From Thermodesulfobacteriota bacterium (GTDB taxonomy: Bacteria > Desulfobacterota > Desulfobacteria > Desulfobacterales > C00003060): DNA of 24,068 nucleotides. Positions 3,202-11,800 of the stretch are shown piece by piece. The notes below the pieces were generated by a model. The model was not told the origin of the DNA. It saw only the letters and a list, made by a program, of their open reading frames with translations, and searched no databases. The position numbers were made by a program, and so were the translations under genes. Where the stretch lies: positions 1 through 24,068 of the forward strand of contig JAXHVD010000036.1 in the NCBI GenBank assembly GCA_034189385.1, written 5' to 3'. Position 1 is the first letter of the stretch. Every line of letters begins with the position of its first letter.

Positions 3202-3249
3202 TCTCGCCCGCTCACTCCGTTCGCTAGAGCTCTCAGAGAGCTCAGAGAT
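3202..3249. repeat. Dispersed repeat, copy A (TCTCGCCCGCTC...TCGCTAGAGCTCTCAGAGAGCTCAGAGAT)
   Basis: 29 nt (3221-3249) are identical to 4575-4603 and the 5' motif is shared. A partial third copy is at 3455-3470. Confidence 0.85.
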
Positions 3250-3663: not shown

Positions 3664-4230
3664 TCAGTTCTTCCCTTTCTTACGCTTACCGTAGGACGCA
3701 CGCTTTTCCTTGACCTCAAAACCTATCTTTCTCTTGGGCTTCTCAGGCGGTGCCATGAGTTGGCGAATCGCCTCAAAAATGACCTCAATCTTCTCATCAT
3801 GATCTTTGATATGCTTCTCCAGTTCCCGGAACTTCCGTGCCAGTTGCTTATGGGTTGCCAGCACCTCTCGAAGCTTCACGAACGCCCGCACCACGAAGAT
3901 ACTTGCCTATATGGCCCTTGGCGTATTAAGGACGCTGGCAGCCATGATGGCCCCATGTTCAGTAAATGCATGTGGGAGAGACCGAGAGAACTTGAGTTTT
4001 GATAGGTGGTTGCAATTTGCAACCACCTCAGCCTTTTCCCCTGCACTGAGGCGAAACATGAAATCCGACGGGAACCGCTTAGTATTGCGCCTCACTTGCT
4101 GATTGAGTCTCTTGGTTGTGACTCCGTAAAGCTCGGCAAGGTCGGTATCCAGGATAACTTTTTGACCTCGCACCAGCAAAATGGTCCTTTCAACCTGTTC
4201 AACCGGAACTATGGCATGCTTACCTGTCAT
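3664..4230 (-). pseudogene. ORF6N-domain (KilA-N-like) DNA-binding protein, split by an in-frame TAG at 3907-3909
   Basis: RGQKVILDTDLAELYGV..KRLNQQVRRN..RFPSDFMF...AFTEHG...VLNTPRAI*ASIFVVRAFVKLRE...RKIGF; both halves are in the same frame. Confidence 0.85.
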
Positions 4231-4344
4231 GAGCCTGTCCCTCGGCAGAACTCACACTTTTCAGGTGCCAAAATGGTGACTCAACTTCTCAATCCCCTGC
4301 TTTTTCAATTCAGATATGTGCTTGGCTGATCACGTTACAGACCC

Positions 4345-4536
4345 CCAAAAAAACAAAACCCCATCTCTCTTAGCGAGAAGCGGGGTCTTTCCACTCAGTT
4401 CATGGCACCCTCTTGGCTTGAGGTTGTTGGGGAAAAAGGGAAACAAAAGCCCATACCACATCATAATGAGAGTATCAATAGCCCAAAGTGACCATTCTTC
4501 ATGCAAAAACTACCTAATTCCCGTGCAAAAACTACG
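4345..4536 (-). promoter_or_regulatory. Leader module, copy 1 (diverged): promoter, RBS, minigene, terminator
   Basis: TTGATA-17-TATGGG; AAGAGGGTGCC ATG AAC TGA (4403-4395); hairpin ACCCCGCTTCTC-gctaa-GAGAGATGGGGT plus T-tract; TGCAAAAACTAC motifs at 4502 and 4524. Confidence 0.65.
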
Positions 4537-4539
4537 GGG

Positions 4540-4603
4540 TCTCTCGCCCGCTCCCCCTTCGACTCGGCTCAGGGTCGCTAGAGCTCTCAGAGAGCTCAGA
4601 GAT
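4540..4603. repeat. Dispersed repeat, copy B, with an internal REP-like CCTTCGACTCGGCTCAGGG
   Basis: Shares the 5' motif and an identical 29-nt 3' block with 3202-3249. Confidence 0.85.
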
Positions 4604-4714
4604 TCTTCCTCATCAGAATCAAACCCTGATGAAGCCTTCGAGGCCAACGAGTCTGGGTGAGCAGCGAAGCCGATAAACCCGAAAAGATGTGCCTACTCAC
4701 GAAGACCCCTGACA

Positions 4715-5944
4715 CTAGGACGCCCCTTCAGTAAAGCTTCCGGCAAAGTGCTTTCGTACCTGTTTGTTGCCGACATGCCTGGATAGCAACTTATAGTTAT
4801 TCTGCTCGTATCGGATTCTTCCTGCAATGATCGCGGGATGAATCTTCAGCTTTGCCGCCAAGGTATACACCTCAGAACTCGTCGCCTTGCCCGCAATGGG
4901 CCTTTTATCCCAAATCCTTTTAGGAATAAGTCCATCCGTTGTCATTTCATCGGCCTCTTTCTCCATTATGTCATCGGCCTCGCCCTCTCTTCCTCGCAAG
5001 TCCAAATCATCGATAATGAGCCGGTCGGATGTCGATAGATGCTTTGAAACATGGGCGAGTTCATGGAGCAGGCAAAACCAGAAATTGTCAATTCTATCGT
5101 AGCGAAGCGTTAGGCCGATGACCGGGGTCTCATCTGACAACAACATGGCGGCTCCATCGAGGTAGGTTTTGGGGAGGTGGGGAACCACAATCAGATGAAT
5201 CCCGTGTTTCTCAAGGTATTCTCTGGCAAGCAAAGGGCCGTTGTCAAAATAGCTCAACCGCGCAACTTCCTGCAACGTACTTAATCTAATTGAGCCCTTC
5301 ATATATCTTGTTTTCAAAGGGTTCTTTCGGGCAAGGGACAGCACGCGAATGCACCACGCGGTGAGGGAATATAGGTCCATCTTAGGATTGTATCTGCCCC
5401 TTATCCCATGGCGAAAAAATCCCGTTGGGACAGACTCCAATCCACCGGCTTGTGTGACAAAATCGCGTATCAATTCCTCGGCCTTTTCCTTTATGTCGGC
5501 CCCCGCCCGAATCCAACCGCGCTTTGCCATTTCAACTACCGGGAATCTAGACCATTCCATGTCCTGCATCTCGTCCGGGAAATCCGCACCTGGCTCCTTT
5601 AGCAGCACTTCGGCAGATATACCCAAGCCTTTGTTCAGCGATCTCATCATGGCCAGGGTAAGCGACCGTTTACCATTCAGGACTTCAGACACCTTGCTTT
5701 TGGTGCCAATGAAGGGAACCATGTCTTTTTGGCTTAATCCCAGCTGCTCCATGCGAAACTTTATGGCATCAATGGGCTCAGGGGGGCTCATAGGGAAGTG
5801 GCGATCTTCATACATTTCTACAAGGGCAGTCAGCAATTCCAACTCATCCATTTCAATGCTGCCCGGTTTGGCCTCCATAAGCTGATCAATGCGCGATAGG
5901 GCCATGTCGTAATCTTCTTCATTTTTTATCAGGCGGTTAATCAT
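4715..5944 (-). CDS. higA: HigA antitoxin: HTH fused to an ImmA/IrrE-type Zn metallopeptidase domain
   Basis: ELELLTALVEMYE...PIDAIKFRMEQLGL...SKVSEVLNGKRSLTL (HTH); YLDGAA, LTLRYDRIDNFWFCLLHELAH (HExxH). Abuts the higB stop. Confidence 0.9.
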   Translation of the reverse strand: MINRLIKNEEDYDMALSRIDQLMEAKPGSIEMDELELLTALVEMYEDRHFPMSPPEPIDAIKFRMEQLGLSQKDMVPFIGTKSKVSEVLNGKRSLTLAMMRSLNKGLGISAEVLLKEPGADFPDEMQDMEWSRFPVVEMAKRGWIRAGADIKEKAEELIRDFVTQAGGLESVPTGFFRHGIRGRYNPKMDLYSLTAWCIRVLSLARKNPLKTRYMKGSIRLSTLQEVARLSYFDNGPLLAREYLEKHGIHLIVVPHLPKTYLDGAAMLLSDETPVIGLTLRYDRIDNFWFCLLHELAHVSKHLSTSDRLIIDDLDLRGREGEADDIMEKEADEMTTDGLIPKRIWDKRPIAGKATSSEVYTLAAKLKIHPAIIAGRIRYEQNNYKLLSRHVGNKQVRKHFAGSFTEGAS

Positions 5945-6244
5945 TTAGATCGCCTCCACGTCAATGCTATCATATTCTCGGTGTGTTCCAATAAAGCGAA
6001 CAAACACCGTTTTCGAATCATAGTTGATTCTGACCACCAATCGGTATTTATTGCCTGCGATATTGAAAACGACCCGATTACCCTTGAGAATGCTTGCAGA
6101 TCCGTACTGAGCCTTTACATCTGCCGGCGATGCCCACTGGGCATGTTTGGCTTCGTAGTACCATGCCTCCAAGGGGCCCTTTGAATCCCCATGCGCTGGC
6201 TGTTGAAAGAACTCGACCAGTGTCTTTCGGCTAATCACATGCAT
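5945..6244 (-). CDS. higB: Type II TA toxin, HigB family mRNA interferase
   Basis: MHVIS...LEAWY...W..PADVK..YGSAS....RVVFNIAGNKYRLVV...VRFIGTHREYD. Confidence 0.93.
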   Translation of the reverse strand: MHVISRKTLVEFFQQPAHGDSKGPLEAWYYEAKHAQWASPADVKAQYGSASILKGNRVVFNIAGNKYRLVVRINYDSKTVFVRFIGTHREYDSIDVEAI

Positions 6245-6303
6245 AGCCTAGTCAGTTCCCTAAAATATGTCAAGCACAAAGTTCCCAATTAGGGAACTTT
6301 GTG
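6245..6303 (-). promoter_or_regulatory. higBA promoter/operator
   Basis: Perfect 12-bp inverted repeat CACAAAGTTCCC-aatta-GGGAACTTTGTG (6275-6303), an extra half site at 6254-6260, and TTGACA-17-TAGGCT abutting the annotated start (possibly a leaderless mRNA with a later start). Confidence 0.6.
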
Positions 6304-6563
6304 GTTCTGCCCATGCAGTAGACAGCCTTTTCTCCCATGTAGGATGCTTCTCATTTTTCCTTTCATTGTCTCGCCCGACGACCACCAAGTTCAGCGGCGG
6401 CATTGGAACGTAGCGCATAACGTCTTTGGGGCCCTTGGGAAGGTCCATGGTTTTATGTATTAGTCACTGCAATTCAACCACTTTTGCCCGTACCACACGG
6501 GAATCGAAGGGGCGGTTTATGGCACGCCCTTCATTTTTCCACATTCGCTTAAGCCCGCAGCCG

Positions 6564-6762
6564 CAAAAAGAGAAAACCCCGTTCTCTTTGGGAGAAACGG
6601 GGCTTTAGCATTTAGTGCATGGCACCCTCTTTGTTTCAGGTTGACGGGTCAGACGCGGACCTTACGGTATCTACCACCAGGAGGTTTTTTTGTCAAGGAT
6701 TCTAATGGGTAACAAATGGTAGAACGGCCTAATCCGGGTGCAAAAAGTACGATATTTGAAGC
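6564..6762 (-). promoter_or_regulatory. Leader module, copy 2: promoter, RBS, minigene, terminator
   Basis: TTGACA-17-TAGATA with a TG extension; AAGAGGGTGCC ATG CAC TAA (6620-6612); hairpin GCCCCGTTTCTC-ccaaa-GAGAACGGGGT plus T-tract. Highly similar to 11592-11790. Confidence 0.75.
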
Positions 6763-6990
6763 AGTGACAAGTGACGAGTGACGAGTGACCAGAGGGGAGA
6801 GCACCGACGACAGACGACAGAGGACGGAGGACAGACTGAAGAGAACAGAGGACCGATCTCGGGAAAGGAAGGGCCGGCGAAACGGGGACGAGGGACGAAA
6901 ACAGAAAGACGACGGAAGACGGAAATGAGACCAAATAAGAGGGGCGAAACGGAGAGCCGGAGAAGGGGGGAAAGGACGAGAGCTTCAGCA
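6763..6990. repeat. Heptamer tandem repeats and purine-rich low-complexity tract
   Basis: AGTGACA AGTGACG AGTGACG AGTGACC (6763-6790), CCGACGA CAGACGA CAGAGGA CGGAGGA (from 6804), then a nearly T-free + strand. Confidence 0.8.
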
Positions 6991-7095
6991 GAAACGATTC
7001 AGGGTATCCTTCAACGTTTCGGAACACACCCGCAGCAGCCGGATTATGAAGACTGCAAGGGGGCTTGGTAACAGCCTGTCTACATGTAACCCTTG

Positions 7096-7341
7096 TTACC
7101 CAGCCTCCACCTCACCGCGCCTTAAGGCCCCACGGTGTCTTCGCTCAAAATAGACCCCTGTCTTTGGGTCCAAAACCGCCTCGTTTTCGTGGATGTACTT
7201 GAGTCCCTCCCACTTTCCGCAGGCCATGACAACAGCGTCTCCAAGGCTGAACTTCTTGCCGCAGGCAAGGCATCCCTCAGCATTGAACCTGTTCACTCTC
7301 TCAAGATCCATGATGGTCCTGTGTTGATGTCTGGTTTTCAT
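7096..7341 (-). CDS. Small hypothetical protein with CxxC (possible Zn-binding)
   Basis: 81 aa, GCLACGKKF...ACG...IHE. AGGGGG RBS and a good upstream promoter. Confidence 0.7.
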   Translation of the reverse strand: MKTRHQHRTIMDLERVNRFNAEGCLACGKKFSLGDAVVMACGKWEGLKYIHENEAVLDPKTGVYFERRHRGALRRGEVEAG

Positions 7342-7386
7342 AAAAACACCCCCTTTTCTAGCCCAAGAAGTCTAGTACTATACTAT

Positions 7387-7415
7387 ACTATAAGGTGCGC
7401 CACCCATTTTGTCAA
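7387..7415 (-). promoter_or_regulatory. Sigma70-type promoter for the 7096-7341 gene
   Basis: TTGACA-17 bp-TATAGT on the minus strand. Confidence 0.6.
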
Positions 7416-7661
7416 AAGACCATGGAGGGGTATTCGTCAACCTTGGCTACCATCTCAAAGGGGGCGTCAAAACCACCCGAACGCTTCTTCCATCCAGGCT
7501 TTTTCTCTCAAACAAGGGCGGAGCCCTTGTGGATAATGGGGACGCCGCCCCTATCTTTTCTAAAGTAGGCCTTCTGGTCAGTTCAAATGACGTATCATGC
7601 TGTGATTGGGCTTAAAGGTTCTGCGGGATAACGTAAAAAGATCATATCTTTCCTACTTTTG

Positions 7662-7726
7662 CGCAGACCGGTAAGGCTCACAGGTCCTGAGCTTGCGAGC
7701 GATCCTTGTGCAGCCGCTGGTTGTAC
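7662..7726 (-). mobile_element. attC site with degenerate R'
   Basis: Minus strand GTACAAC cagcgGCTGCACAAGG...CCTGTGAGCcttaccg GTCTGCG; L boxes with an extrahelical base, R' is GTC instead of GTT. Confidence 0.65.
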
Positions 7727-7767
7727 ATCTATTTGAAATCTTTTAAATAAAAAGACTAAGTTGCCTC

Positions 7768-7810
7768 TTGACATCAGCCAGGTGTGTATATAATATGATA
7801 TTTATACACA
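7768..7810 (+). promoter_or_regulatory. vapBC promoter/operator
   Basis: TTGACA-17-TAATAT overlapped by the inverted repeat TGTGTATA (7783-7790) / TATACACA (7803-7810). Confidence 0.65.
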
Positions 7811-7831
7811 TTCAGCGTCGGAGGTAATGCC

Positions 7832-8026
7832 ATGCGAACCAATATTGTGATAGACGACGAACTCATGAATGAAGCAATGACACTCAGCCGGCTCAAAACC
7901 AAAAAAGCTGTTGTTGAAACCGGACTGAGACTATTGGTCCAAATGAAGAAACAAGAGCGAATCAAAAGTCTGCGCGGGAAACTGAAATGGGATGGCGACC
8001 TCAATAAAATGAGGTTGGATCGGTGA
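7832..8026 (+). CDS. vapB: VapB-family antitoxin (DUF2191 type)
   Basis: MRTNIVIDDELMNEAM...TKKAVVETGL...LRGKLKWDGDL; GGAGG RBS; overlaps vapC at GTGA. Confidence 0.9.
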   Translation: MRTNIVIDDELMNEAMTLSRLKTKKAVVETGLRLLVQMKKQERIKSLRGKLKWDGDLNKMRLDR

Positions 8027-8421
8027 TATTGGTCGACTCATCCGTATGGATCGATTATTTCAACGGCTTGTCCACGTGGCAGACAGACTCACTCGACAAT
8101 TACCTTTCCAATGTGCCCGTCGTCATCGGGGATCTGATTCTCACTGAGGTCCTTCAGGGCTTCAGATCAAACGAGGATTTCGAAACCGCCAAGAGCTTCC
8201 TTAGCGTTCTCCCGTTCCGCCAAATCGGTGGATACAATGTCGCGATTCAAAGTGCCAAAAATTACCGCTCCCTTCGAAAAGCTGGCGTGACCGTAAGGAA
8301 AACGATTGATGTCATTATAGCAACTTTTTGTATCATCGAAGGATTGACTTTGCTCCACGATGATCGTGATTTTGACCCCATGGAATCCCATTTTTCCCTG
8401 AAGACATTCCCACCACCGTAA
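8023..8421 (+). CDS. vapC: VapC PIN-domain toxin
   Basis: ILVDSSVWIDYF...EVLQG...RKTIDVIIATFC....LLHDDRDFD. Confidence 0.92.
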   Translation: MILVDSSVWIDYFNGLSTWQTDSLDNYLSNVPVVIGDLILTEVLQGFRSNEDFETAKSFLSVLPFRQIGGYNVAIQSAKNYRSLRKAGVTVRKTIDVIIATFCIIEGLTLLHDDRDFDPMESHFSLKTFPPP

Positions 8422-8452
8422 ATTCGGCATATCCCCTGCCATTTATTGTTTT

Positions 8453-8553
8453 GACGTACGTCCGAGCTTAGCTGAATGGTGTTCTGTGTCTTTTCAACGT
8501 TTATTAGGAAAAACACGCAAGCGTGACATTTCAGCTACAGCGATATGTTCGCT
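8453..8553 (-). mobile_element. attC site with degenerate R'
   Basis: R'' AGCGAAC at the relE stop, L boxes CTGTAGCTGA / TCAGCTAAG, and GTACGTC at the R' position. Confidence 0.6.
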
Positions 8554-8834
8554 TAAGTGCTTTTCATGTATTTTCTTAAATCTCGGTAGTAATTTTCATA
8601 AGGGCCAATCATTATCAATTCTAGATTTCCTTCAATAATTCTGTAAGCCAAAAGATACTGAGTTGCCCCGATCTTAAACTTGTGTACGTAGATACCTCGC
8701 AAATCGCCCTTCTTTTCAAAGCCGATGGTCGGATCGTCGATAATCGCCTTTACCTGCTCGTCCAACTGTAGCTTTTGTTTTTTGCTGAATTTCCTGACTT
8801 TTCGTTGAAAAGATCTTGATTGGAGGGCTTTCAT
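8553..8834 (-). CDS. RelE/ParE-family toxin
   Basis: FQRKVRK...IIDDPTIG.EKKGDLRGIYVHKFK.....YLLAY....L.MIGPYENYY. Confidence 0.88.
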   Translation of the reverse strand: MKALQSRSFQRKVRKFSKKQKLQLDEQVKAIIDDPTIGFEKKGDLRGIYVHKFKIGATQYLLAYRIIEGNLELIMIGPYENYYRDLRKYMKST

Positions 8835-8840
8835 AGAATC

Positions 8841-9059
8841 CTATCCAAATTTATATTCAGAAGATTCGCCCTGATCCAACTCAGCTACCCCAATCAATAT
8901 TTCTTTAATGAGGCTGTATGTGAGGTCGGGATTTTCCTCTGCGCATTTTCCAATTCTAGCCCAATGTTCAATTTGCCCGGTTATGGATCGTTTGTCGATT
9001 TTGCTATAGATTTTAGCCTCTTTGACCAGTTCACCAGAGACTCTAATAGCTGTTGTCAT
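8841..9059 (-). CDS. ParD-like antitoxin
   Basis: MTTAIRVSGELVKEAK.YS....RSITGQIEHWARIGK.AEENPDL; start moved to ATG 9059. Confidence 0.88.
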   Translation of the reverse strand: MTTAIRVSGELVKEAKIYSKIDKRSITGQIEHWARIGKCAEENPDLTYSLIKEILIGVAELDQGESSEYKFG

Positions 9060-9124
9060 CGTAGCACCCCCGTGTTTTTTGTCGCATTTTACCACAATTT
9101 ATTGCGTATTGCAACCTGGTGGGC

Positions 9125-9196
9125 GGGAAACGCTCTGGCTCAGAGGTGGTGGACACGAAGTGGCCACCATCCCTTTGCAGGCGGGTGTTCGACGCC
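9125..9196 (-). mobile_element. attC site of the inverted vapBC cassette
   Basis: R'' GGCGTCGAAC is the exact 10-bp complement of the cassette start GTTCGACGCC (9938-9929). Central stem TGGTGG/CCACCA; R' GTTTCCC. Confidence 0.75.
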
Positions 9197-9217
9197 TTTA
9201 AAAACCCATTTTTCTAT

Positions 9218-9253
9218 TGAGATACGATAGATGCCATGGTATATATCATGGCA
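9218..9253 (+). promoter_or_regulatory. Second vapBC promoter/operator
   Basis: TTGAGA upstream of a TATATA box embedded in the near-perfect palindrome TGCCATGGTATATATCATGGCA (9232-9253). Confidence 0.6.
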
Positions 9254-9281
9254 AAAAGCTAGTCAGAAAATGGAGGTTCAC

Positions 9282-9509
9282 ATGAAAACAGCACGCCTTT
9301 TTGTCAATGGACGTAGCCAAGCGGTTCGTTTGCCCAAAGATTTCCGGTTCTCGGGGTCTGACGTCTATATTAAAAAGCTCCATGGAGTGGTCATGCTCAT
9401 TCCCAAGGATGACCCGTGGGCCTCACTTGTCAACAGCCTCGACCATTTTTCCGACGATTTCATGACCACCCGGGAACAGCCAGAACATCAGTCGAGGGAA
9501 GCGTTGTGA
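9282..9509 (+). CDS. vapB: VapB antitoxin (AbrB/MazE type)
   Basis: MKTARLFVNGRSQAVRLPKDFRF; GGAGG RBS before ATG 9282. Confidence 0.92.
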   Translation: MKTARLFVNGRSQAVRLPKDFRFSGSDVYIKKLHGVVMLIPKDDPWASLVNSLDHFSDDFMTTREQPEHQSREAL

Positions 9510-9910
9510 TCACCTTTATGCTAGACACCAACATTTGTATCTACATCATCAAAAAGAAGCCGGAACCGGTACTCGGGCGGCTGAAGAACACTCGCATCTC
9601 CGATATCGGGATTTCTTCAATTACACTCAGCGAACTTGCATATGGGGCAGAAAAGAGTTCCCGGCCCGATCAGAACAAAATTGCCTTGGCCGCATTCCTC
9701 GCTCCCCTCGAAATCCTTTCCTATGACGACATGGCTGCCCAGGAGTACGGGAAGATTCGAGCATATCTGGATCGCTGTGGAACGCCGATAGGGACTATGG
9801 ATATGCTCATCGCGGCACATGCACTATCCCTCAATTGCACGCTGGTCACCAACAACGAAGGCGAGTTCAATCGTGTCGTATCCCTAAAGATGGAAAACTG
9901 GGCCAAATAG
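9506..9910 (+). CDS. vapC: VapC PIN-domain toxin
   Basis: MLDTNICIYII...SSITLSEL.YGAEKS...GTPIG.MDMLIAAHA......LVTNN..EF; GTGA overlap with vapB. Confidence 0.93.
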   Translation: MITFMLDTNICIYIIKKKPEPVLGRLKNTRISDIGISSITLSELAYGAEKSSRPDQNKIALAAFLAPLEILSYDDMAAQEYGKIRAYLDRCGTPIGTMDMLIAAHALSLNCTLVTNNEGEFNRVVSLKMENWAK

Positions 9911-9931
9911 TTCTTAGTTTGTTCTTATGGC

Positions 9932-10013
9932 GTCGAACCTTTGAGTTCACTTGCCGGCCCCAAACTAGCCGCGATTAGCGCCGCCGCACCTCTACCGGTC
10001 AAGTGCAGCGATT
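9932..10013 (-). mobile_element. attC site lacking R''
   Basis: AATCGCTGCACTTGACCGG...CCGGCAAGTGAACTCAAAG GTTCGAC; same type as the attC at 10903-11008, but the AAC of R'' is missing. Confidence 0.65.
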
Positions 10014-10069
10014 ACTAAAATGTTTTCTACGATTTTATTCGTCACATTTGCAGTTTTAATTTTTTCACA

Positions 10070-10459
10070 TCATAGCGATTTGTTTGTAAAAACGATGAAA
10101 ATTGCACACCCCCATAAAATCAAGGCAACAGTGATGACCAGCAAAACTGCTGCGCTGCTGAAATCTTTTGCCTTCTTGGCAAATACATGAAATTCCGGTG
10201 AAGCCAGATCAACGATTGATTCTATAGAGGAATTTAAAAGCTCAACAATCAAAACAGATGTGCTCGCAAAGAAAAGGAGCCCTTTCCAAGCAAGAGATAG
10301 AGGCAGAAAAGGGAGAACCACCAAACCAATTACGACTACACACAGCTCCTGGCGAAATGCTGTTTCACTTGAAATAGCTACTCTCAACCCATCCAAAGAA
10401 TAAAAGAAAGCTGCCCATATTCTAGCCAGACCAGTTTTCTGTCGAGGCTTTCTTCCCAT
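10070..10459 (-). CDS. dgkA: Prokaryotic diacylglycerol kinase
   Basis: YSLDGL..A...ETAFRQE...VELLNSSIESIVD......H.FAKKAKD.SSAAV; start moved to ATG 10459 because the longer ORF runs through the attC. Confidence 0.9.
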   Translation of the reverse strand: MGRKPRQKTGLARIWAAFFYSLDGLRVAISSETAFRQELCVVVIGLVVLPFLPLSLAWKGLLFFASTSVLIVELLNSSIESIVDLASPEFHVFAKKAKDFSSAAVLLVITVALILWGCAIFIVFTNKSL

Positions 10460-10464
10460 GTCGA

Positions 10465-10531
10465 AAATAACGCTACGCCTCGCAGGACGCGAGGTGGCGA
10501 GCGGTCCTTTGTGAAGCAGCATGTTAGGTGC
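10465..10531 (-). mobile_element. attC site, right arm apparently truncated
   Basis: R'' GCACCTAAC complements the cassette start GTTAGGTGC (10909-10901). Apex stem CCTCGC/GCGAGG is followed almost at once by GTTATTT, with no L' partner. Confidence 0.6.
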
Positions 10532-10535
10532 TTAA

Positions 10536-10880
10536 CTATCCGAAAAAGCAACCGTAGCTATCTTCATCTATGGTAGCAACCAGGTCCTCAATCTTTCTGC
10601 TTTCTCTATGAGGTTCATACTGGTTCCACTTGCCACTTGCTCGTTTCCAGTACAGTTTCCAAACACCACGACTTTTCACGTAAGTAATTTTGGCAAAATC
10701 CATATCCAGCCACTTACTCGGGTCATCCCAACGCGGCCTGCTTTCGAATATGAAAATATCTTGGTTTTCGATTCGGTAGCCGTTTTTCAACTGGTCGCGG
10801 GCTCTTTCATGGACACGATTATCGCAGAATTTTCCAATTAATCTCTCAATTCGTTTCTTTTCTAATTCTGAAAAGGCCAT
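10536..10880 (-). CDS. DUF3024-domain protein (gene cassette)
   Basis: MAFSELE...IFESRPRWDDP......AK..YVKS...WKLYWKRA..KW..YEP...IDED.YGCFFG. Confidence 0.85.
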   Translation of the reverse strand: MAFSELEKKRIERLIGKFCDNRVHERARDQLKNGYRIENQDIFIFESRPRWDDPSKWLDMDFAKITYVKSRGVWKLYWKRASGKWNQYEPHRESRKIEDLVATIDEDSYGCFFG

Positions 10881-10902
10881 TATTCTCTATTCCCTTCTTT
10901 GC

Positions 10903-11008
10903 ACCTAACGCTTGAGCTTACCTGCCGGCCAAGACCTTTCGAGCGTCCACAGGCATTCTCGAAAAACTACAAAAGTTGCTCCCGGTCAGGTACAGTGATT
11001 TGTTAAGT
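10903..11008 (-). mobile_element. Intact attC site
   Basis: Minus strand ACTTAAC aaatc ACTGTACCTGACCGG...CCGGCAGGTAAGC tcaagc GTTAGGT; 106 bp with canonical R''/L''/L'/R'. Confidence 0.88.
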
Positions 11009-11048
11009 GCCCGCCAACCGTTGCAGTTCTATTCCAGCAAATCTACGG

Positions 11049-11267
11049 CTATTTCATTTTCTCCATCTTTTTCCATTTGAATATTGAAAGATAGAGCAAA
11101 AAGACGCCCACAAATATTGCCAAAGGAGCAAATACCAATCCTCCCCACCAGTTTGAGTAAAACAAATCATTTTTCAACACTAAAGGAATTAATCCAGTTG
11201 TCGTGACCACCAAAGCGGTTATGATAACCCCAGACCTTTTAATTTTCCGTTTAGTCTTTTTTTTCAT
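11049..11267 (-). CDS. Small two-TM membrane protein (gene cassette)
   Basis: MKKKTKRKIKRSGV followed by two hydrophobic helices. Cassette bounded by GTTAAGTGC (11282-11274) and GCACTTAAC (11010-11002); ATG 11267 is the start inside the cassette. Confidence 0.65.
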   Translation of the reverse strand: MKKKTKRKIKRSGVIITALVVTTTGLIPLVLKNDLFYSNWWGGLVFAPLAIFVGVFLLYLSIFKWKKMEKMK

Positions 11268-11273
11268 ACCTTG

Positions 11274-11312
11274 GCACTTAACATTAGTAATTATATGCTT
11301 GCGTTTTTTTGC
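11274..11312 (-). mobile_element. First recombination point of array A; possible attI-like site
   Basis: AAAAAACGCAAGCATATAATTACTAAT|GTTAAGTGC: a GTTRRRY core with no attC hairpin upstream, in an AT-rich context. No intI nearby. Confidence 0.35.
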
Positions 11313-11591
11313 CGCTTTCTTAAACCTGAAACACTTGCAAGAAATAAGAGAAAATAAGGCCCGATAAGCCATATTTGCCTAAATGTTCTAGGCTTAGCGA
11401 ATGTTGGCAGTTCAGACAGAGAATTACACAAATGTAATAAGTGCAGCTTTTGCCCCCTCATAGGGGTAGTTATGTTGCAGCGCGCTAACCTTCACATTCA
11501 CTTATTTCCTGAAAAACCTGAGACACTTTTAATGCAGCGACGTGCTCACATAAGACTCAAAGAGTGCTGAACAGCCTTTGCCTAAGCCCTC

Positions 11592-11800
11592 AAAAGACAA
11601 AACCCCGCCTCTCTTTAGGAGAAACAGGGCCTTTCCATTCAGTGCATGGCAGCCTCTTCTTTTCAGGTTGACGGGTCAGACGCGGACATTACGGTGTCTA
11701 CCACCAGGGGGTTTTTTTGTCAAGGATTCTGATGGGTAACAGATCGTAGAACGGCCTATTTTGGGCGCAAAAAATACGATATTTGGATGCAAAAACTGCG
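11592..11800 (-). promoter_or_regulatory. Leader module, copy 3: promoter, RBS, minigene, terminator
   Basis: TTGACA-17-TAGACA; AAGAGGCTGCC ATG CAC TGA (11647-11639); hairpin GCCCTGTTTCTC-ctaaa-GAGAGGCGGGGT plus T-tract; motifs at 11766 and 11788. Confidence 0.75.

Follow-up and report, generated by a model that had tools for sequence, protein, structure and literature searches.

A multicopy leader family of Desulfobacterota with a ribosome-loading site at a fixed distance from a terminator hairpin, a candidate ribosome-gated attenuator

A coupled ribosome following RNA polymerase can prevent intrinsic termination, and terminators lying close to stop codons mark species in which the two are uncoupled; the accessible part of the review that describes this does not have Desulfobacterota among the phyla it lists as uncoupled. 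Several single leaders are built around a translating or stalled ribosome. In Streptococcus gallolyticus pil1, a leader open reading frame (ORF) precedes a premature intrinsic terminator and expression is off by default (PMC3894217), while in Bacillus subtilis vmlR, stalling of a ribosome on the upstream ORF (uORF) called uORF(MIN) gives read-through of an intrinsic terminator (PMC9226507), and in Escherichia coli the toiL uORF of the TopAI-YjhQ operon senses general translation stress, with a toxin-antitoxin (TA) system behind it (PMC12121999), as far as the accessible text of these reports describes them. Here we analyse a 24,068-nt stretch from a Thermodesulfobacteriota bacterium (assembly GCA_034189385.1, contig JAXHVD010000036.1; the whole stretch is called the window below) that carries three minus-strand copies of a repeated leader element. 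Its conserved core is a Shine-Dalgarno (SD) sequence and an AUG located about 18 nt 5′ of a covarying terminator hairpin. Judging from this sequence anatomy, we hold with moderate confidence that the element is a leader that attenuates transcription in cis, is off by default and opens according to ribosome occupancy, and that ribosomes probably decide whether the unrelated genes behind it, defence genes included, are transcribed.

The window copies lie upstream of an ORF6N gene (copy 1), of higBA (copy 2) and of an integron cassette array, array A (copy 3), and remeasurement reproduced the layout given for all three in a preliminary description of the window, namely a promoter, spacer, ATG, hairpin and T tract on the minus strand (Table 1). 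The -10 box is 46 nt from the ATG in copy 1 and 47 nt in copies 2 and 3, the hairpin begins 18 nt past the A of the ATG, and the predicted RNA would be 93-94 nt long if transcription is assumed to start 7 nt after the -10 box, within the range of about 90-100 nt proposed earlier. Over 198 nt, copies 2 and 3 share 85% identity, and an 89-nt core common to all three copies is 72-78% identical; a pattern of this core matched the window three times versus 0.00 times in 100 shuffles, the pattern having been drawn post hoc from the copies themselves. In each copy, the minus strand gives a better fold than the plus strand (z -1.19, -2.89 and -1.94 versus -0.84, -1.18 and +1.32 for copies 1 to 3), the fold of copy 1 not being significant by itself. 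The -10 boxes of all three copies lack the final T, and consensus scans called none of the three promoters and only the terminator of copy 3. Copy 1 had been described as having a diverged leader with the spacing kept. The spacing is indeed kept, but the promoter block, only 45-49% identical to those of copies 2 and 3 (42-46 of 93 positions), is a member of a second promoter family (18 matches), indicating that copy 1 is a chimera that retains the core and its spacing.

The element was thought to be triplicated, which is true of the window but not of the genome. Iterated nhmmer searches of this genome gave 20 matches below E 1e-6, some of them promoter-only, and a covariance model of the core found 17 copies at E<=1e-3. 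The family was detected by blastn in 11 of 40 relatives and by the covariance model in 22 of 150 genomes of the phylum and 21 of 100 genomes of the order, with copy numbers reaching at least 29 per genome. An exact pattern for the hairpin only, run over GTDB, matched at least 120 loci; among the matches listed, 80 loci carry titles, and 58 of these are deltaproteobacterial by title (Desulfobacterales, Syntrophales, Desulfatiglandales and others). No Rfam covariance model matched the window at E<=1 and none reached its gathering score over the element in 16 loci, consistent with the earlier statement that this is not a known riboswitch or small RNA (sRNA). The accessible main texts of noncoding RNA surveys contain no description of the family, nor did we find one in the literature covered, which excluded the supplement of PMC11109978 (Geobacter and a Desulfobacteraceae genome) and most subscription papers. 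The repeats are apparently members of a real, widespread and undescribed leader family in sulfate-reducer relatives.

The hairpin-only query contained no SD or ATG. Among the matches listed, an SD plus ATG is present 12-25 nt 5′ of the stem (mode 18) at 48 of the 58 deltaproteobacterial loci; controls on the opposite flank of the hairpin and in a shifted window gave 4 of 58 and 1 of 58, respectively. Of the other titled hairpins, 7 of 21 have it too, as do 31 of the 41 without a title. The same arrangement occurs at 14 of 299 other terminators of this genome and at 916 of 20,000 random positions. All 17 copies in this genome have an ATG or GTG 17-19 nt 5′ of the stem, and an SD and start were called in 155 of 196 non-redundant family matches. 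A stop codon in frame with the start precedes the stem in 103 of these 155, versus 26 and 21 for the other two frames; the corresponding counts in the hairpin-only set are 45, 20 and 11 of 78. A single sense codon followed by a stop, presented at first as the general layout, is the modal form (9 of 17 copies in this genome, where the remaining ORFs have a later stop or extend through the hairpin, and 62 of 155 across the family) and not a rule. The ORFs are mostly 1-5 codons long and without a repeat tract, the gap between stop and stem is 0-13 nt (mode 9), and the distance from the AUG to the 7th-8th U is 52 nt (10-90% range, 49-55). The 62 two-codon ORFs use 21 sense codons specifying 12 amino acids, and all three stops. 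Since the start and in-frame stop are kept while codon 2 varies, it is the translation signals that are selected and not the peptide; the site for ribosome loading, together with its spacing from the stem, is invariant and the dipeptide is not. There is no run of regulatory codons matching a downstream pathway (12 amino acids occur at codon 2 and no pathway is shared), and the mini-ORFs of the family do not have two consecutive rare codons after the start.

The predominance of TGA among the two-codon ORFs (45 of 62), with the hairpin 9 nt behind, could alternatively point to a selenium sensor, in which the UGA and a hairpin resembling a selenocysteine insertion sequence (SECIS) are read as selenocysteine and the ribosome enters the terminator. 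Bacterial SECIS elements combine an obligate UGA with a conserved G in the apical loop. The remaining 17 of the 62 ORFs end in TAA or TAG, however, copy 2 of the window among them, the loop is A-rich, variable and devoid of a conserved G, and the downstream genes have no selenium theme, making this explanation highly improbable.

The stem is maintained as a structure. In 101 model-aligned matches (alignment A4, which was fitted to the structure), 11 of 13 pairs show double changes, with 0 of 500 shuffles as good, and the stem is 96.5% paired with many G-U changes; own partners pair better than swapped partners (0 of 200 swaps as good). Together with the better fold of the minus strand, these data bear out the suggestion that a real RNA structure is formed from that strand. 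A conserved antiterminator was not detected, as 105 of 200 swapped controls for pairing of the SD with the 5′ arm and 124 of 200 for pairing of the anti-SD with the 3′ arm were as good as observed. Pairing between the start region and the 5′ arm, matched by 4 of 200 swaps, was no better than in letter-shuffled sequence and was discounted. A weak hairpin involving an AACC motif about 20 nt before the AUG would hide the SD (-4.33 versus -3.70 +/- 0.17 for letter shuffles, with 14 of 200 swapped partners as good) and is only suggestive. The same terminator-like hairpin is located behind Rfam cobalamin riboswitches at three deltaproteobacterial loci (L100, L102 and L114), two of which precede cobU and a histidine-phosphatase gene, and behind tRNAs at one further locus, as would be expected of a working terminator. 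Gene-end terminators of this genome mostly keep clear of stop codons (median distance 36 nt, with 10 of 75 within 12 nt), a pattern anticipated for organisms in which ribosomes interfere with adjacent terminators, and the family stem sits inside the zone that they avoid.

Bases of the upper stem are conserved at 87-98% across distant families even as the ORF spacer drifts, and the distribution is patchy and multicopy. These features would suit factor-dependent antitermination, in which a protein or a trans-acting RNA opens the sequence-conserved hairpin and the mini-ORF tunes timing or stability. ORF6N proteins would be candidates for such a factor, as their genes are next to 4 of the 17 copies here, recur as next neighbours in several other families, and are weakly linked to the element by co-occurrence (13 of 19 positive versus 6 of 21 negative genomes, p 0.025; genome groups were set by model matches with 29-43 candidates scored per genome, and negatives may be false). 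ORF6N is nevertheless absent from 6 of the 19 positive genomes, and neither NusG paralogues (12 of 18 positive versus 11 of 21 negative genomes) nor RF3 (9 of 19 versus 10 of 21) are linked to the family. Conservation of the stem is partly circular, the same hairpin serves riboswitch and tRNA loci, and inspection by eye of 51 complementary sites revealed no evident partner for the 5′ arm outside the element. We therefore regard an antitermination factor as unlikely. The single NusG match in this genome scores 77 bits, like the paralogues of its relatives, and the main nusG gene is therefore probably unassembled.

The position of the element relative to its neighbours would suit action in cis. 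The next gene, taken as the first downstream ORF of at least 100 aa, is co-oriented in 69 of 77 cases at a median gap of 88 nt (lower quartile 46 nt), versus 44 of 65 on the upstream side (p 0.0016). A TTGAC-TA promoter motif is present upstream in 43 of 117 cases and downstream in 2 of 115; among 27 such promoters with a 17-nt spacer, 11 contain TG and 8 the final T, and the core is kept behind two different promoter families. With 17 copies, a co-oriented next gene and no Rfam match, the proposal of a duplicated expression-control unit stands, whereas a multicopy sRNA, offered as its alternative, is disfavoured by the co-orientation. A related possibility is that the terminated 95-nt RNA is itself the product and sequesters ribosomes, release factor or peptidyl-tRNA hydrolase, or acts as a CreT-like toxin. 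The element has its own promoter and terminator, its succession of SD, AUG, short ORF, UGA and stem-loop resembles the anatomy of CreT in the accessible description of that toxin, copies can number at least 29 per genome, and the neighbours of copy 2 have a promoter-like site of their own. On the other hand, there is no rare-codon pair, 21 different second codons are used, one third of members have no early stop, the next gene is strongly co-oriented across a short gap, and cas genes are not consistent neighbours (Cas6 at two loci), so we give an RNA product little credence.

In this genome, 12 of the 17 copies precede defence, TA or integron features: ORF6N genes or fragments (four), an integron integrase, the attI-like site of array A, HigB-HigA, HicB-HicA, HamA, a DUF3644 protein, a DNA methylase and a TIR protein. 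The remaining five precede SodB, a sigma-54 regulator, two unknown ORFs and a contig end. Defence-type next genes in other genomes (AbiE, RloC-like AAA, caspase, Cas6, HsdM, Fic and ORF6N) occur along with PAS/GGDEF and cyclase-AAA signalling proteins, binding proteins, transport proteins, hydrolases and metabolic enzymes. Because the genes downstream are so mixed elsewhere, the view that the element heads defence and TA blocks applies to this genome and not to the family, and replacement of the Pc promoter and intI of integrons, also suggested in the preliminary description, is not supported as its general role.

Unrelated downstream genes, decayed copies and lineage-specific expansions with shared flanks are also what one would see if the element were a drifting, duplicated promoter-terminator cassette (a "mobile attenuator", or the end of an insertion sequence (IS) or prophage) whose start codon is vestigial and which only dampens the genes behind it, a concept known for IS 3′ terminators (PMC2965389, accessible text). 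Yet none of the 66 nearest upstream ORFs matches a transposase family, no terminal inverted repeats were seen by eye in the alignments, blastn searches of plasmid and phage collections gave no match to the element, and the one match in IMG/VR is to the exact hairpin; these searches thus provide no upstream transposase and no plasmid or phage match to indicate an IS or prophage end as the source. The AUG, spacing and stop frame are, moreover, kept across families that diverge elsewhere, and we consider a mere drifting cassette quite unlikely. Two further readings were dropped by eye: an opposite-strand TGGCAC as a sigma-54 site is not kept outside one subfamily, and the palindromes before two LexA-domain genes are unlike the upstream block of the element, which we did not retain as a LexA box.

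An SD-led leader ORF 5′ of a terminator, a covarying stem with a U tract and a co-oriented next gene are the features of an attenuator, and from the observed anatomy, spacing, conservation of start and in-frame stop, stem covariation and cis position we infer a course of transcription, ribosome loading, termination, steric antitermination and signalling as follows. A sigma70-type promoter would drive a leader in which the SD and AUG lie ~18 nt before the intrinsic terminator, and by default RNA polymerase would stop and an RNA of ~95 nt would be released. If a ribosome arrives in time and lingers at the start codon, at codon 2 or at the stop codon, it would shield the stem base as polymerase reaches the U tract, such that the terminator could not close and the next gene would be transcribed. 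Variants without an early stop, in which the ribosome would enter the hairpin, are expected to be leakier. What the leader senses would be the arrival of a ribosome or the length of its stay (translation stress, slow release or recycling, loading rate) and, as the peptide is irrelevant, not a single amino acid. We favour dwell time since the selected stop before the stem argues against opening by routine translation; possible alternatives are an input from the loading rate (growth) and a leader that simply dampens expression.

Several points weigh against a ribosome-gated attenuator. An initiating ribosome reaches about +16 in toeprints (PMC9226507, accessible text), short of the G-C stem at +19 here, and occlusion from the start codon would therefore be marginal. 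Terminators in the first 100 nt of E. coli ORFs terminate at near 100% despite translation, according to the accessible part of a review, so that a pause or long dwell would be needed. An SD plus start was not called in 41 of 196 matches, and of the 155 members with a start, 52 reach the stem without a stop. For third codons with an initial T, 62 stops compare with 58 expected from base frequencies, an uninformative test. The covariation comes from an alignment fitted to the structure, and the pattern-selected seed alignment A2 shows none above shuffles. The primary sequence of the stem is highly conserved, which steric occlusion does not need and which the search methods select for. Copy 2 is 318 nt from higB, and higB is equipped with a promoter-like site and a palindrome of its own. 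Finally, because family members are related, the counts are not independent.

A bolder and rather doubtful extension is that the family constitutes a regulator-free, phylum-spanning regulon in which ribosome dwell at initiation or termination switches on integron integrase, anti-phage, TA and other acquired genes together. Start-(codon)-stop gates, up to ~30 per genome, would have been reshuffled behind different promoters, and disturbed translation, for example during phage or toxin attack, would be the trigger. If ribosome gating holds, this patchy, multicopy element is an unannotated repeat family marking accessory genes in Desulfobacterota genomes and a near-simplest attenuator, requiring only a ribosome at a fixed distance from a terminator, with neither regulatory codons nor an alternative fold. 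It would also show how these anaerobes quiet foreign and defence genes and how a single physiological cue might free them. Nature supplies a test set for the blocking of intrinsic termination by a terminating or initiating ribosome in the two-codon, longer and stop-less variants, whose spacing is fixed.

Table 1. Coordinates of the leader copies, their parts and associated features (window positions unless a contig is named).
Feature	Position	Strand	Basis
Copy 1, chimera (second-family promoter block and family core)	4343..4536	-	sequence alignment
Copy 1 predicted sigma70-like promoter, TTGATA-17-(TG)-TATGGG	4450..4478	-	sequence only
Copy 1 upstream repeats, two GTAGTTTTTGC	4535 and 4513	-	sequence
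Copy 1 SD (GAGGG) and mini-ORF ATG AAC TGA (Met-Asn), ATG at 4403	4395..4415	-	sequence
Copy 1 terminator-like hairpin (4386-4358) and U tract	4349..4386	-	sequence, folding
Copy 2, full element (main-family promoter block, leader, core)	6562..6751	-	sequence alignment
Copy 2 predicted sigma70-like promoter, TTGACA-17-(TG)-TAGATA	6668..6696	-	sequence only
Copy 2 SD and mini-ORF ATG CAC TAA (Met-His), ATG at 6620	6612..6632	-	sequence
Copy 2 terminator-like hairpin (6603-6576) and U tract	6567..6603	-	sequence, folding
Copy 3, full element	11588..11800	-	sequence alignment
Copy 3 upstream repeats, three, 22-bp-spaced	11799, 11777, 11755	-	sequence
Copy 3 predicted sigma70-like promoter, TTGACA-17-(TG)-TAGACA	11695..11723	-	sequence only
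Copy 3 SD (GAGG) and mini-ORF ATG CAC TGA (Met-His), ATG at 11647	11639..11659	-	sequence
Copy 3 terminator-like hairpin (11630-11602) and U tract	11593..11630	-	sequence, folding, consensus terminator scan
ORF6N gene (PADLOC candidate PDC-S05), in-frame TAG at codon 108, halves in one frame	3664-4230	-	
higBA promoter-like site (TTGACA 6273-17-TAGGCT 6245) and 12-bp-arm palindrome (6303-6275), outside the element	6245..6303	-	
Spacer like the element-to-intI leader of contig C42, then like the post-intI region of C42; ends in GTTRRRY core 11282-11276	11276..11587	-	three-way alignment
Second promoter block, sites in the genome	C22:1907-, C22:9447-, C36:493+, C23:1341-, C10:91961-, C34:131050-, C22:34378+; window 4450-4536		

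The hairpin and U tract of copy 1 are separated from the ORF6N gene, for which the ESM Atlas added nothing, by 115 nt. HigB and a 409-aa HigA-like protein (4715-6303, minus strand) match PD-Lambda-2 A and B, and the promoter-like site in front of them abuts the start codon, which suggests that the higBA mRNA is leaderless or nearly so. The spacer following copy 3 is a probable integron platform lacking intI, and copy 3, which occupies the intI-leader place of the intact C42 integron while intI is missing here, looks like an old intI leader; read-through from it into array A is possible. The element is 5′ of the co-oriented intI on C42 and, at copy 3, precedes the attI-like core by ~310 nt, most family members not being at integrons, and an attI-like reading of the element core itself was rejected by eye for want of a conserved GTTRRRY. 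The C42 integron (C42:1-6803, L029) encodes an integrase with a ~100-aa N-terminal extension, co-oriented with the cassettes and with the element upstream, and a second element copy on C42 precedes hicBA. In the window, attC-like sites at 723-815, 2011-2088 and 10893-11018 flank cassettes for candidate defence proteins (PDC-S60, Abi-alpha/PDC-S47 and DUF3024/PDC-S43); the arrays were lightly checked, an attC scan recovering none of their sites and hand-picked candidates folding modestly. Other repeats beside the copies (4537-4603, 3221-3249 and 6752-6960) comprise a GC-rich type that matches the genome at 7 or more additional places and short, low-complexity, pyrimidine-rich ones.

The second promoter block, in which GTAGTTTTTGC repeats spaced by 22-23 bp are followed by -35 and -10 boxes, has three leader types downstream: c-di-GMP-I riboswitches (five Rfam matches in seven loci), leaders with an ME..CLP(G/S)S mini-ORF, and that of window copy 1. 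These arrangements suggest that promoters and leaders can be exchanged as modules, and the GTAGTTTTTGC repeat may be a transcription-factor site. Elsewhere in the genome, the promoter of a LexA-domain gene (C14:14802-15230, minus strand) contains two GAAC-N4-GTTC palindromes, which we take to be the Firmicutes-type SOS box, group II intron fragments adjoin two element copies at one locus (L036:2258-2776, contig C19), and the helicase gene that follows hamA on contig C56 is split by an IS transposase.

Among systems with partial likeness, as their accessible texts present them, the axe-txe minigene (PMC8708949) is also a mini-ORF of two codons that exerts its effect in cis within a TA system, where distance and frame matter, but it affects toxin mRNA translation or stability inside an operon, with no terminator and no repeated leader. 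CreT RNA toxins (PMC8501985) share an SD, AUG, a mini-ORF, often UGA, and a stable stem-loop, but require a pair of adjacent rare codons together with a CreA/Cascade partner, and we saw neither in the family. The "mobile attenuators" of Naville and Gautheret (PMC2965389) are likewise related 5′ terminators before unrelated genes; they are IS or prophage terminators, however, whereas the family has its own promoter, a ribosome-loading site and no transposase neighbour, and its hairpin string does not occur in the supplement text of that report. toiL frees a downstream ribosome-binding site and involves Rho-dependent termination at a single locus, and it lacks the pairing of an intrinsic terminator with a dipeptide ORF. 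vmlR uORF(MIN) resembles the family mini-ORFs in being very short and sequence-tolerant, but vmlR relies on anti-antiterminator and antiterminator helices and a NusG pause to control one resistance gene, and a conserved antiterminator was not found in the family. In pil1, as proposed here, the ribosome itself and not an alternative RNA fold prevents the stem from forming; pil1 differs in having a long GCAGA-repeat ORF and phase variation at one locus, whereas the family ORF is mostly 1-5 codons long, ends 0-13 nt from the stem and has many unrelated genes behind it. On this comparison, the family would be an undescribed variant of ribosome-dependent attenuation, a kind of control that is already known.

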